Below, piece by piece: positions 43,847 to 54,199 of a stretch of DNA of 64,000 nucleotides. The position numbers and the translations under genes were made by a program. Below the pieces are notes generated by a model. The model was not told the origin of the DNA, searched no databases, and saw only the letters and a list, made by a program, of their open reading frames with translations. Position 1 is the stretch's first letter, and each line of letters opens with the position of its first letter. This stretch comes from Curvularia clavata (taxonomy: Eukaryota): positions 4,588,001-4,652,000 of the forward strand of contig CP089276.1 of assembly GCA_023920165.1 (NCBI GenBank). Reading direction: 5' to 3'.

Positions 43847-46041
43847 TGTTACGAACCTGAAGGAAGAGGCACGGCGGTTAAGTTAAGAAGCATCGACGAC
43901 CAGTCGACCCAGCCATATGTAACGCGGGGGCACGCATCACATAATCTCCTCAGTGGCGCATGTCCGAGGAAGGGTCTTGGCAGACTCCTCGTGTATAAGC
44001 CACAGAGGAATGCTCCTCGTACATAAGCTACCGAGGGTTACTCGGACTCCTCTAACCAAGGGTTGCGAGCACCATAAGTATATAGGAATAGGTATTAAGC
44101 CCTTATAGCTTAATATATTCAACTTAAGTTATAAGTATAGTACCTATAATACAATAGTTACTATAGAACCCTATTCATAATACACTATTACTTCATCCGC
44201 GAAAACTAATCTAAGAAGATCTTAATACTAGAAGTCTTATATTACTTCTATTTAAGATTATACTTTTAATACTTTAAATACTCTTACAATAAGTAATATT
44301 ACTATAAATACTCCTAATACTTTCTAGACTAGAGGATCTACTACTTATAGATATAAGTCTGACTTATACTATAGAAAATGTAAAAAGCTTAAGGCTTGGC
44401 TCTTCTAGATCGACTAATACTTCTATCTTGAAGAAGATAAGATTAATAATACTAACAAGATCATTGTAGCTATCTTATACTTTTGTGGCGATACTAAGAA
44501 GTAGGCTAACTCTATTATTAAACGCTATATAGATAACTCTATCTAGGATGCTAATAATACAGCCTTAGTCGAGGACTGGGACGCCTTTAAAACCAAGATG
44601 CGACAGAACTTCTCACTATTTAAGAAATTAGTTATTATAGAATAAAAAATCCAGGAACTTCGCTAGACGCAGTCTACTACTAACTATACTATACTATTTT
44701 AGCAGTACGCTACAGTTATAGAATAGGATAATAATGCCTTTATATGTATATATAAGCAAGGTCTTAAATCTACTATACGCAGGGAACTTATATAAAGTGG
44801 AGCCAGCATTAGTATACTAGAAGAACTTATTAAAGAATCTATTTAACTAGATAACGAACTCTACGAACTCTTATTAGAAGAACGACTATTCAGCAAGAGA
44901 ACGCGCAGCCAGAGATATATAAATAAATAATCTAAGAAGTATAGCTATTAACATACTTATCTAAACAAAGGTTAATAATGAAACTACGCGCCTAGAACTC
45001 TAGAAGCCTATTATAGATATGGTGCGGAACCAATACACCTTAACAACATTAATAAAGGTAATGGGTCTAGCAAGTTTAACAAAGAACTATCTAAAGGTAA
45101 GAAGAAGTTTAACTGCTACGTCTGTGGCAAGAAAGGCTATATAGCATGAGACTATTAAAGCAAAGACACTAATAAGGTCAAACAACAACTCAACGTACTA
45201 CGCAGGAAATTAGAATTAGATAATAACGAGAGATAGAATGTTATTACCCTAGCTAAGATCTAATATTATCTAGATAATGAGGGACTTATTAGTGGACTAG
45301 AGAATGTTACGCTTACTACGTCTAAGAATACTACTAAAGCTAAACTAAGTAGCGATGAAAAGTACGAAATATCTAGCGAGAAAAAAGAAACTCCTACGCA
45401 CAAAACTAAATATAAGAAAATAGCTAAGTTTAAGAAAAAACACCAACTAGCTACTCCGCGCTATGACAGCGCCTTACTAGAAATTCTACACGTAAGGGAT
45501 GACCTGAAATATATAGAACTACAGACTAATATACTACGACAACTCTTAAATCAACCTTTTTACGGGTATAATTATAACGAGCCTAACGTACTTCTTTATA
45601 TATATAAAGATATGTAGAATCTTAGATTAGATATCGACTTCTTTTCCATTATAACTAATTAGAAACTACCAGACTACACGCATATCACGGCCAACATCCA
45701 ACAACTATAAGGAAACACGGAATTCCCTAAAGACAAAAAAAACTCCACAACGACATCTCAATGGGCCAAGAAGGCATAAGTAGACTGGATATGCGATAAT
45801 TGTCAGGACCTGGTCCAAATTGGGACATGTTGGTCCAATTCCCTCCTTCTTCACGCTAGTTAGTCAGCTAGGGCTTACCTAAGGCTATAAAGCCTCCACG
45901 ATCGCTAGAGGTGCTCGATAGCGATTCGTCTCGTGAATACATGGCTGTTAAAGCATAGTTCTCTCTCATCTATCTCGTGCTGTACCTTCACGCCACTAAC
46001 AGTCTAACATTCGAATCGCTCTCCTCAAGTACACCTACGAG

Positions 46042-47274
46042 ATGTCAGAGAGAGCCATGCCGAACCCAGGTAGTCGCCAAACTCGGAGCCGCCCAAGGTC
46101 AACTCGAAACACGGTAGTAGGGGACTCACAGCCCACTCTAACTAGAGACTCAACCCAGCCATCTTCAAGTGAACTATCCGAGCCTGCCGTCACGGAGGCA
46201 GATCAGGCCGAACTGGCACAGAGAAGCCCAATTCAGGGCAGCCCAGCTCGACTTGAACCACCTCAGACCACCATTGCTCAACAGCTAGACGAACTGCGCG
46301 CTTGGAGGCAACGAGCGCTTGACGAGCAAGAACTGAAACGTCTCCAGGAAATCAAGCGTCGGTTCGACCAAGGTGACACGACAGCACTGACAGAGGACCT
46401 ATATGAACCACACCGTGCGGTGGGGATACAACTAGAACCAAACGTGGGAGCTCCACGACCAGAAAAACCAACACAGTTCACAAGCCGCGATCGTGCCGAG
46501 TACAATCGCTGGGAACGCGAATGTGAGGCAACGTTTAGGGGAAGCCCTAAAACGTTCCAAACAGAGGCAGTCAAGATCGATTTTGGGCTTAGGTATATCA
46601 CTGACCCCCTACGCTCCACATGGGACGCCTATTATCACGACTACTGTAGAAAAGACACGAATTGGACACCCACGTGGCTAGACCTGAAGACTGTAATGGT
46701 GGATTCACTGGGACCACCAGAACAGCGGAAGCTTGAAGCCCACCGAGCTCTCAAACACATCAGACAGGACTGGTCTCAGGACCCAAACGACCTGTTGGCC
46801 AAATTGGACACACTTTGGTCCGAATTGGGCAATGCCTACTCGGAAGAGCAGAGAGTGAGGGACTTTATGGGCGCTTTGACAATGACAATACAGAAAGAGT
46901 TGCTTTTACTCGAACCAGGTCAAAGAAGCACAATCTCAGACCTAAACGCGCGAGCGCGACTTATCTGGGACAGAACGAAAAGAGAGAAGCCTAGCAACGC
47001 TAGAACAACGCAGAACAAGCAAGCCAGGAGCGGCACACCACCAAAGAACATAAGAGGGTACGAAAAAACCCTGAAAAAACAAAGACGGAACCCTGCGGAT
47101 ACAAAAGGTTCATACGCGGCAAACAAGGTTCGAGGACGCGACGCAGAGGGCAAAATTGTCTGTTACAACTGCGGGGAACCCGGACACATCAGCAGGAACT
47201 GTAGTAAGCACAAACAAAGCCAAGCGGCACCTGAGGAACCCAAACTGGAAAAAGGCAAGGGGCGGAGAACCTAG
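46042..47274 (+). CDS. gag: Gag of Gypsy B
   Basis: 410 aa ORF after the 5' LTR with CYNCGEPGHISRNC zinc knuckle. Confidence 0.9.
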   Translation: MSERAMPNPGSRQTRSRPRSTRNTVVGDSQPTLTRDSTQPSSSELSEPAVTEADQAELAQRSPIQGSPARLEPPQTTIAQQLDELRAWRQRALDEQELKRLQEIKRRFDQGDTTALTEDLYEPHRAVGIQLEPNVGAPRPEKPTQFTSRDRAEYNRWERECEATFRGSPKTFQTEAVKIDFGLRYITDPLRSTWDAYYHDYCRKDTNWTPTWLDLKTVMVDSLGPPEQRKLEAHRALKHIRQDWSQDPNDLLAKLDTLWSELGNAYSEEQRVRDFMGALTMTIQKELLLLEPGQRSTISDLNARARLIWDRTKREKPSNARTTQNKQARSGTPPKNIRGYEKTLKKQRRNPADTKGSYAANKVRGRDAEGKIVCYNCGEPGHISRNCSKHKQSQAAPEEPKLEKGKGRRT

Positions 47275-52330: not shown

Positions 52331-54199
52331 GGTTCAAGTGGGTCTTGAAGGCCCCAATTTGGGGGTGTCTGGGACGAATCGGTCGAATCTGTCGCGAAAT
52401 GGATCGTATGGGAGGAAACAGCCTAAAAAGAAAAGTCAGCAGAAAACTCCAAGTCCAGGGGAAGAACCTCAGAAAAAGGCAACAAAACCAAGGTCGACTG
52501 CAAACTGGCCCAAATTGGGCCAAACTGTTGCAAACAGACCGTGGGTGGAAGGTGTCGGGCCCAAACTGAGAAGACCCACAAAATGGGAGTCTACTTACCA
52601 AAGTGGGGTTGGTGGACTGTGGGGTGTACTGGGCTTAGTCAAAAACTGGCTATTGTATCCCTGGATCCGCACTAAATTAGCGCGTCACGTGACTCTTGGC
52701 GCTGCCCAGGAGTACCCTGATGGGCCGGGTTGGCCCAAAGTGGGGCAGTCGGCTAGGCAGCAGCGCAAAACTCCGCTATTATGACGTCATAGCCCTGGGG
52801 CGGTGAGCAAGTAAAATACACCCTCCAACCCACACGGCGGCATCACCCAGTAATCGCTCAAACTGGGCGGCAAGCATGATAAGTTGCGCAGCTGGGACAG
52901 CTGCACCCTAAGAAGGGAGGTATTGTCAGGACCTGGTCCAAATTGGGACATGTTGGTCCAATTCCCTCCTTCTTCACGCTAGTTAGTCAGCTAGGGCTTA
53001 CCTAAGGCTATAAAGCCTCCACGATCGCTAGAGGTGCTCGATAGCGATTCGTCTCGTGAATACATGGCTGTTAAAGCATAGTTCTCTCTCATCTATCTCG
53101 TGCTGTACCTTCACGCCACTAACAGTCTAACAATAATTAGTACCAACTTAGTCTCTATTAGTACTACGCAAACAACTATAAGTATGCGTGGATCTACTAG
53201 ACGGGTTGCGTCCATAACTTCTGCCCAACATATTGGCAAGCTAAGCAAGGATCTAACTAGAATCTAACTAGTATTCCTGGATACCCCAAATATAGCTAGA
53301 TATAGTCAGAGTGTACTAATATAGGATGCGCAAGGCACCTATAGGATAAGCGCACCGCAATACACTTTCCTAGAAGAGATAGCCCAAGAGAAGTGGTAGA
53401 TATGCAAACTACCTATATTATTTAAAGTAAGGGCAACGTATAATAAGTATGTAACTAACCTTTATGGCACACTTGTCTCTTAGATAAATACGAGAAATAC
53501 GAAGTAAAAAAACTTTATAATAGATTTATAAAGAAACTATAGACTTTTTTAGGCTAGCGCTATGAAGGTAGGGCCTCTCTAGGAAAATCAACTTAGTAAA
53601 CTTCCTAGGATTAATTAAGCTTATAGTAAAGTGTTACAAGTAACAAAGAAGGATCTCTCCTTGACGATGGCCGCAGGTAGGAGACCATTGGGCGACACGT
53701 CAGAAGGTAATGATCCCCGCGGAAGGGCGATCACATGACTGGCCTCAGGCCAAGACCGGGAAACCACGCTAGTATGTGAGGACACGCTCACACGTGACCA
53801 AAGTGACTTCAGGGACTTCAGAGAACACAGGGGTTATTCCGTGAGGACAGTGAGGACAGGACCGGAAGCAATGGGTATAAGAATGTGTTGGATTTCATTA
53901 TTACACTCGTTGTGGTCAACTCAGCAAAGTATCTTTCATAGTTACCTTTCATACTCAGATTGATACTAGTTATTCTATCTTCCAATAGGATTGGTTTTGT
54001 CTATCTTCCGTTAATCCCTACCACCGAATCGCCAGACAACTACCTCACGGTATACTTCATAGAAACTGGCCTCGCCCTAACCCGGAATCTAGGCTAGGTA
54101 AGTATATTCCCAACTAACCAGTAGGACCCCGTGTAACACTTTGACCACCCACGGATTCGGTAAGCGGTTTAACACCAAGCGTCCGATTGAGATATCACC

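Follow-up and report, generated by a model that had tools for sequence, protein, structure and literature searches.

What reads a short palindrome that recurs throughout a single retrotransposon? The question is raised by element B, a long terminal repeat (LTR) retrotransposon in a 64,000-nt stretch of Curvularia clavata DNA (assembly GCA_023920165.1, contig CP089276.1, positions 4,588,001 to 4,652,000; this whole stretch is the window, and its own numbering is used here). The palindrome, CCAAWTTGG, clusters in and around a gene that lies between pol and the 3' LTR of B and runs antisense to the element. The initial annotation of the window proposed that the copies are binding sites for a dimeric protein encoded by the element itself, by analogy with the VANC anti-silencing system of Arabidopsis VANDAL transposons. 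We found that the motif is confined to B within the window, is packed into the non-coding DNA of B and recurs in a metagenomic relative, and it is very probably a selected cis-element. We also favour, with less assurance, sites for a protein on double-stranded DNA and, tentatively, the antisense product as that protein.

The window holds ten copies of CCAAWTTGG against 0.40 expected, and all ten lie inside B (45815, 46799, 51077, 51224, 51481, 51751, 52013, 52354, 52510 and 52938). Dinucleotide-preserving shuffles (n = 100) gave a mean of 0.40 and a maximum of 3, with none reaching ten. These are the ten coordinates that the annotation had given, and there is no further copy in the 64 kb. With one mismatch allowed, the window contains 27 matches (10.8 expected), 21 of them in the 7.3 kb of B and 6 in the remaining 56.7 kb; the near-matches noted earlier at 46820, 49997 and 51491 are present among them. 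The enrichment is sharpest past the pol stop (50976), where non-coding DNA totals 1056 nt as far as the 3' LTR; in it, seven exact copies were found against 0.041 expected and none of 5000 dinucleotide shuffles reached seven, which supports the claim that the motif exceeds background. These seven comprise one copy in each of the three introns of the antisense coding sequence, one in its 5' untranslated region (5'UTR), one in a 5'UTR intron and two past its stop codon. The antisense exons (891 nt) contain no exact copy, gag and pol together (4935 nt) contain one, and each 209-nt LTR contains one. The top 7-mers and 9-mers of the 1056 nt were all derived from the motif. The features of this region are:

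51265-52330, minus strand: antisense coding sequence of 296 codons, with exons 52330-52052, 51994-51789, 51736-51529 and 51462-51265 (gene model)
52423-52598, minus strand: putative 5'UTR intron of 176 nt with GT..AG ends, its 5' splice site kept in the metagenomic relative
51077-51085, unstranded: motif copy downstream of the antisense stop
51224-51232, unstranded: motif copy downstream of the antisense stop
51481-51489, unstranded: motif copy in antisense intron 3 (51463-51528), abutting a putative branch point on the 5' side, with a near-copy at 51491
51751-51759, unstranded: motif copy in antisense intron 2 (51737-51788), abutting a putative branch point on the 5' side
52013-52021, unstranded: motif copy in antisense intron 1 (51995-52051), a slot also filled in the relative
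52354-52362, unstranded: motif copy in the antisense 5'UTR, 32 nt ahead of the ATG (33 nt in the relative)
52506-52522, unstranded: perfect 17-bp palindrome with its core at 52510-52518, in the 5'UTR intron and within a 10-bp-period array (52501-52527)
52735-52743, unstranded: degenerate copy (one mismatch) flanked by half-sites, in the region upstream of the antisense gene; the corresponding region of the relative has an exact copy
50955-50993, plus strand: tandem array of half-sites with a 10-bp unit, CGGGCCAAAA, in 3.9 copies across the pol stop codon

The introns of the coding sequence are 57, 52 and 66 nt long (introns 1 to 3) and have GT..AG ends, and joining the four exons by their coordinates gives an open frame of 296 codons. 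Together with the identity of the two LTRs, these features uphold the placement of the copies in LTRs, gag, introns and UTR regions. The annotation had also considered one copy in each short intron to be improbable by chance. This arrangement is unusual, but not wildly so, given a density of about one copy per 150 nt of non-coding DNA, a judgement that is an estimate and not a computed test. Packing into coding-free DNA would account for one copy per short intron wedged at the branch point, because this is the only free space there. In the five coding-sequence introns of B (three) and the relative (two), 0-1 nt separates the motif, or a degenerate copy of it, from the putative branch point on its 3' side, and these branch points read ACTAAC, ACTAAT, GCTAAA, GCTGAC and ACTGAC. 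The starts of introns 2 and 3 of B are similar, a hint of common origin. The sole coding-region copies are those in gag (46799-46828), where an exact and a one-mismatch copy, 21 bp or two helical turns apart, encode ..AKLDTLWSELG...

Alignment of the B copies defined a full site, TGGYCCAAWTTGGRCCA, a 17-bp palindrome made of two GGYCCAA half-sites. The GGY..RCC extension described in the annotation is thus real, and the copy at 52506-52522 matches it perfectly. The centre, CCAA-W-TTGG, is invariant in all ten copies and the arms vary, with Y at the variable position of the half-site in eight of the nine distinct copies. Most copies are dispersed singles with 147-428 bp between them. Strict palindromy about an odd centre, together with arms that vary around a core that does not, points to a protein of two-fold symmetry on duplex DNA, and we regard protein sites on double-stranded DNA as the probable nature of the motif. 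We considered a MADS-box site as one such possibility. The MADS-box CArG site is CC-(A/T)6-GG; the core in B is CC-(A/T)5-GG and the variants in the relative have G or C within the core, and this candidate was rejected.

The motif might instead act in RNA, through packaging, dimerisation (the palindromes of two genomes pairing with each other) or export of the sense RNA or through splicing control of the antisense pre-mRNA, which we judge to be improbable. Every intron compared, three in B and two in the relative, has motif-like sequence next to its putative branch point; this adjacency may be forced, as there is only room for a 17-nt site at that position in introns of 52-66 nt. Pairing of flank positions is possible in seven of the nine distinct copies on the plus strand (three by U-G) and in four of nine on the minus strand, and hairpins of -9 to -12 kcal/mol are possible for three copies (52510, 52354, 51224 minus strand). 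However, only weak structures (-1 to -6 kcal/mol) form in 13 of the 18 strand folds, and the loop and inner stem would consist of the conserved part of the motif, with no clear compensation for the changes in the outer stem. Splicing would also remove the intronic copies from the antisense mRNA, the copy in the 5' LTR would be absent from the genomic RNA, and the covariance models of Rfam 15 gave no match at E<=1 on either strand of 45700-53200. The RNA hairpin, which the annotation had named as an alternative, therefore fits less well than a DNA site, and the weak folds of most copies and the conservation at the centre led us to reject it as the main explanation.

Evidence for selection came from a relative of B. 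This is a metagenome contig of 2189 nt (L001), recovered in a metagenome scan with a three-sequence alignment, and it is the only relative compared at the DNA level. Its exon 1 encodes a protein 46% identical to that of B, its LTR is homologous to that of B, and the two share the layout of LTR, polypurine tract and antisense gene; its coding-sequence introns lie at 1851-1912 and 2071-2127. CCRAWTYGG occurs four times in L001, where 0.05 sites would be expected (0 of 3000 shuffles), along with 11 half-sites where 2.3 would be expected. Intron 1, the 5'UTR (33 nt ahead of the ATG; 32 nt in B), the 5'UTR intron and the upstream region each hold one full site, so that three of the four occupy non-coding slots that are used in B; exon 1, exon 2, the LTR and a 640-nt flank have no full site. 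Nucleotide identity between B and L001 is 67% in intron 1 (with the first 13 nt identical), 61% in exon 1 and 50% in exon 2. Because unconstrained introns should be randomised at this divergence, these data suggest that the sites are under selection, and we conclude with considerable confidence that the motif is a selected cis-element. Conservation in relatives, which the annotation had made a test of its proposal, was thus found at an exon-1 identity of 46% and in three of the same slots; the presence of the motif in both LTRs does not extend to the family, as the LTR of L001 is without it. On this comparison, the motif observation is stronger than a first reading of the sequence could show. 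Two further candidates, on genome contigs (L002 and L003), rested on spurious matches of 16-17 residues and were dropped, and a scan of IMG/VR viral contigs for the antisense domain found no relative.

The sites in L001 also bear on the identity of the reader. Three of the four are CG-type variants (CCGAATCGG, CCGATTTGG and CCAAATCGG) with no CCAAT pentamer on either strand, and L001 carries a CCG-N3-CGG version of the site. The L001 sequences at 1386-1400, 1536-1550 and 1886-1900 differ from those of B by symmetric transitions at CpG positions (CCGAATCGG compared with CCAAATTGG). Deamination of a CG form could have given rise to the CA/TG form, or the reader could tolerate R/Y at these positions. 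One alternative, rather unlikely in our view but a serious rival, is that a host transcription factor reads the sites, and that B gathered them so that its LTR promoter and antisense promoter would be driven or insulated. The factor could be a palindrome-binding dimer of the zinc-cluster or bZIP type; for the sites of B alone, it could also be the CCAAT-binding complex. Drosophila gypsy, with its array of Su(Hw) sites, is a precedent for host-factor sites in a retroelement. All ten B copies carry CCAAT on one strand, but only one of the four L001 copies does. A HAP/NF-Y site needs an intact CCAAT pentamer, and the CCAAT-binding complex is therefore disfavoured as a conserved reader. In U3, the LTR copy of B does precede a TATAAA box by about 75 bp, which is the usual spot for an upstream promoter element, and the antisense protein is without a recognisable DNA-binding domain, yet a promoter element has no need of every intron. 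Nor was an exact copy found in 27 kb of ordinary gene-bearing DNA at the left of the window (a small sample) or in the two other intact-looking LTR elements of the window.

These other elements served as controls for the association between the motif and the antisense gene. One (53632-60842) is a gypsy element with identical LTRs and 33-38% pol identity to B, the same identity as is seen in gypsy relics at about 32.8-35.6 kb and 61.5-64 kb that resemble products of repeat-induced point mutation (RIP); the other LTR-flanked element (37454-42675) has no pol match to B. None of these has an antisense-family match or an exact motif. The terminal repeats of the two intact-looking elements are 100% identical over at least 300 nt and one of the two has an open pol frame of 1504 codons; neither has space for an antisense gene, and neither carries a dispersed palindrome. 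Similarly, 14 chromovirus contigs from IMG/VR (81,230 nt, 38-48% reverse transcriptase identity) contained no antisense gene and no CCRAWTYGG. Both elements with the gene (B and L001) have the array, and the compared gypsy elements without the gene have none. A search of IMG/VR with the 17-mer pattern returned 44 loci with one isolated match each and no gag, pol or antisense-family match; we took these to be chance matches unrelated to B.

Some copies are products of slippage, as two local arrays with a 10-bp period (50955-50993 and 52501-52527) indicate, and TTGGNCCAA junctions mark head-to-tail chaining of units. This raises the possibility that the sites have no specific reader and are a by-product of 10-bp slippage or duplication of a GC5/AT5 unit or, given that introns 2 and 3 start alike, of intron duplication. 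A variant of this explanation is a physical effect on DNA curvature or nucleosome positioning through alternation of GGCC and AAATT with each helical turn. We consider either form unlikely: most copies stand apart as dispersed singles, arrays of 27-39 bp are far too short to position nucleosomes, and the 9-mer is kept at matching positions in L001 despite an exon nucleotide identity of 50-61%. The 5'UTR of B also contains a small tandem of CGAATCGGT units (52375-52394).

We then considered which protein might bind the sites. The predicted antisense protein has 296 amino acids, with a six-cysteine N-terminal domain and a charged helical C-terminus. A search of 1.84 billion representative proteins with exon 1 (93 amino acids) gave seven matches at E<=0.001, of which six are real (the best 47% identical) and one is a low-complexity repeat protein. 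One of the relatives is a full-length hypothetical protein of 309 amino acids from Alternaria gaisen; most of the others end just beyond the exon-1 boundary, as expected if gene callers run on into the intron. Six cysteines (CxxC..GC..CxRC..x6..C) are invariant in all eight aligned exon-1 domain sequences, and the domain is probably zinc-binding. We examined whether it could be a Zn2Cys6 zinc cluster, whose canonical spacing is C-x2-C-x6-C-x5-12-C-x2-C-x6-8-C. The spacing in B is C-x2-C-x16-C-x32-C-x2-C-x6-C and there was no match to Pfam PF00172 (Zn_clus); the second half resembles a zinc cluster, but the first half and the 32-residue linker are far off the canonical spacing, and membership was rejected.

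The antisense product is nevertheless the most economical reader, because it is the sole element-specific protein without an assigned role, its cysteine domain is conserved and it co-occurs with the array. We assign it as the reader tentatively, at somewhat less than even likelihood. In the mechanism that we favour, the motif would be the core of the 17-bp recognition site in duplex DNA, and selection would pack such sites into nearly all coding-free stretches of the 3' third of B and, in the family of B, into the U3 of the LTR. A protein of two-fold symmetry, for which the 296-residue antisense product is the likeliest candidate, would bind them. Its binding along the LTR and the antisense gene would label copies of B as the element's own, and this labelling may set their transcription or chromatin state, either as autoregulation or as shielding from silencing. 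We put forward this full explanation (symmetric-protein sites, read by the antisense product, marking its own copies) as a serious possibility that falls short of probable. The action on DNA, the identity of the reader and the effect of binding are what we infer from the patterns described above. Of the dimeric, element-encoded binder that the annotation proposed, the symmetry is well matched by the palindrome, and enrichment, element specificity, non-coding restriction and conservation in L001 agree with it; the assignment to the element's own protein stands less firmly.

Several observations weigh against this mechanism. The antisense protein has no recognised DNA-binding domain by Pfam, PDB profile or fold search. 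Pfam gave no match for exons 1-3 at E<=0.1 and nothing useful for four relatives at E<=1, and exon 4 had only weak coiled-coil-type matches. A sequence profile search of the PDB returned one match at E 0.75 and no usable structure. The AlphaFold2 model of the domain was poor (mean pLDDT 61), and VIA-align of this model against 48,161 solved chains found no match at Z>=2. Four sequencing runs (X9, X10, X8 and X1), which are probably DNA, contained no splice joints, and their contigs span the introns unspliced. In addition, the LTR of L001 does not carry the copies seen in the LTRs of B, the CCAAT in every B copy could be read by a host CCAAT factor, three copies can form the hairpins noted above and slippage produced some of the copies. 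Finally, the co-occurrence of gene and array is in effect one evolutionary event, as B and L001 share ancestry.

Other searches with the antisense protein gave little. The matches of exon 4 (seryl-tRNA synthetase arm, colicin, lethal-factor and others; E 0.002-0.07, all below cut-offs) were set aside as coiled-coil noise. In the ESM Atlas the best feature score was 0.76 and the structure TM was at most 0.32, below lead level; a search for longer homologous proteins with exon 1 gave no matches, and a two-copy complex prediction for exon 4 scored 0.00 and gave no answer. By the searches run, the predicted protein belongs to no known family.

To place this system, we compared it with known pairs of proteins and sites. 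Gal4-type Zn2Cys6 dimers bind CGG/CCG palindromes. The antisense protein is similar to these in its six cysteines, the C-x2-C-x6-C of its second half, and a putative N-terminal metal domain followed by a helical region, and L001 has the CCG-N3-CGG site; the C-x2-C-x16-C of the first half, the 32-residue linker and the missing Zn_clus match set it apart as a non-member. HBZ of human T-cell leukaemia virus type 1 (HTLV-1) is an antisense bZIP protein that acts on repeated LTR response elements, largely via host CREB/AP-1 partners. B likewise has a spliced antisense gene near its 3' LTR, with a nuclear-factor-like product and a helical C-terminus, but no bZIP signature was found in that product.

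The analogy drawn in the annotation was to VANDAL21, in which VANC21 binds the 9-mer motif YAGTATTAY in introns, intergenic DNA and terminal non-coding parts (Hosaka et al. 2017, PMC5735166). In the available text of that study, binding and loss of methylation were shown by experiment and motif density mattered (PMC5735166). As far as that account goes, both systems have a short motif that is enriched in one transposon family, rare elsewhere and located in non-coding parts, and an accessory gene beside the transposition genes, with some copies made by tandem duplication. However, VANDAL21 is a plant Mutator-like DNA transposon whereas B is a fungal LTR retrotransposon, and their proteins are unrelated by the searches run. 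The VANDAL motifs are described in one orientation and mostly in tandem, whereas the motif of B is a dispersed palindrome, with eight of its ten copies dispersed singles and two short 10-bp arrays. The analogy thus holds for the layout in introns and other non-coding parts, and fails for motif orientation and tandem arrangement.

Another comparison is with brtn, the antisense gene that Boty-like Ty3/gypsy elements carry in Botrytis and Sclerotinia (Zhao et al. 2011, Virology 417:248, cited in PMC8365987, PMC7264820 and PMC4227169). As summarised in these citing papers, it too is an extra antisense gene between pol and the 3' LTR of a fungal chromodomain gypsy element; in B this gene is a spliced minus-strand frame of 296 codons whose exon-1 domain occurs in six database proteins. 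The descriptions of brtn in the citing papers include no motif array, the LTR of B is 209 bp, and no Botrytis or Sclerotinia name was among the exon-1 relatives that we found. The plant gypsy element Retand has antisense ORFs (open reading frames) with a probable DNA-binding TRP28 domain and family-specific tandem arrays between pol and the 3' LTR, for which a regulatory role has been proposed (PMC11963269). The likeness, judged on the available text, is an antisense ORF and repeats in the same interval with a regulatory role in view (PMC11963269). By the same account the Retand elements are plant non-chromoviruses with long tandem arrays, unlike the 17-bp palindrome dispersed through the introns of B; TRP28 (PF04195) was not found in the antisense protein by Pfam, and introns are not mentioned in the available text of PMC11963269. 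Our literature search, whose coverage left out most subscription journals, found no description of this motif in a transposon, nor of palindromes arrayed in association with a fungal antisense gene.

In plant and fungal LTR retrotransposons, additional antisense genes are known from the interval between pol and the 3' LTR, and the available text of two papers that treat them assigns them no function (PMC7264820, PMC11963269). B pairs such a gene with a sharply defined, conserved and element-specific cis-site. Should the antisense protein prove to be the reader, private recognition between a protein and its sites would be within the evolutionary reach of retrotransposons as well as of VANDAL DNA transposons, and this would explain why introns of these genes match their exons in conservation. 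If a host factor is the reader, B is a dense natural array of the sites of that factor. A bolder possibility, which we consider unlikely but worth stating, is that a fungal chromovirus lineage carries a self-recognition module consisting of a new class of six-cysteine DNA-binding protein and its own 17-bp sites. The sites would be threaded through the introns, UTRs and flanks of the gene and, in some families, the LTR; the protein would coat copies of its own element only, and would keep them open or shield them from heterochromatin or RIP-linked silencing. With such a module, retrotransposons would have their own equivalent of the VANC system, and an antisense accessory gene of an LTR retrotransposon would be given a function for the first time.

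B itself is a Ty3/gypsy chromovirus LTR retrotransposon. Its pol has the order protease, reverse transcriptase, RNase H, integrase and C-terminal chromodomain, and Pfam matches were found to RVT_1 (4.7e-38), RT_RNaseH (7.2e-31), Integrase_H2C2 (4.4e-19), rve (1.2e-06) and Chromo (2e-17). Its remaining features are:

45796-45800, unstranded: left copy of the 5-bp target-site duplication ATAAT (right copy 53133-53137)
45801-46009, plus strand: 5' LTR of 209 bp with TG..CA ends, identical to the 3' LTR, with a motif copy at 45815 and a half-site at 45830-45838
46042-47274, plus strand: gag with a CCHC zinc knuckle, a motif copy at 46799 and a near-copy at 46820
47235-50976, plus strand: pol with protease-like, reverse transcriptase, RNase H, integrase and chromodomain regions, in two reading frames in this copy
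52910-52920, plus strand: polypurine tract directly before the 3' LTR
52924-53132, plus strand: 3' LTR with a motif copy at 52938

Relative to a database protein (P0130), the pol frame is broken after ..SKLQG near 49900-49930, inside the integrase, and 883 of 888 and 348 of 354 residues are identical on either side of the break. A protein annotated in Curvularia clavata, read there in a single frame, matches the pol of B at 98-99% identity. The identical LTRs and intact target duplication mark B as inserted very recently, yet with the frame change inside its integrase this copy can probably not produce that enzyme.

Upstream of the antisense gene, 52650-52900 (minus strand) shares short conserved blocks with L001 900-1250. 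A TGACGT(C/A)A element and a GCCGTGTGGG block in this region are likely to be promoter elements separate from the palindrome.

A host gene for a major facilitator superfamily (MFS) transporter lies 35 kb away (10434-12011). Its best named matches are 63-68% identical (Extremus, Saxophila, Pseudocercospora and Cladosporium), and it is 61% identical to a Curvularia match, compared with 98-99% to Curvularia clavata for the pol of B. This contrast may mean either that the host is unsampled or that the element was transferred between distant fungi.

Parts of 50900-53132 were found in 20 of the 24 public runs listed, from 16 studies, and eight runs hold at least half of its words. The runs that hold this region cover nine organism codes (A-I) and four metagenome labels (surface, sediment, wastewater and root), and the element is nearly identical among them. 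In DNA run X1, 50900-53200 is represented by near-identical copies at high word depth (about 720) together with diverged copies, whose differences are nearly all C>T (91 places) and G>A (83 places), a RIP signature; one RIP-type change falls in the motif, at 51752. The DNA around B (28000-37400, 42700-45800, 53133-53630 and 60850-64000) consists of AT-rich degraded repeats (32-37% GC) that are 61-90% identical to each other. This surrounding DNA, a RIP-like graveyard of retrotransposons in which B and its neighbours are nested, includes the gypsy pol relics at 32.8-35.6 kb and 61.5-64 kb.

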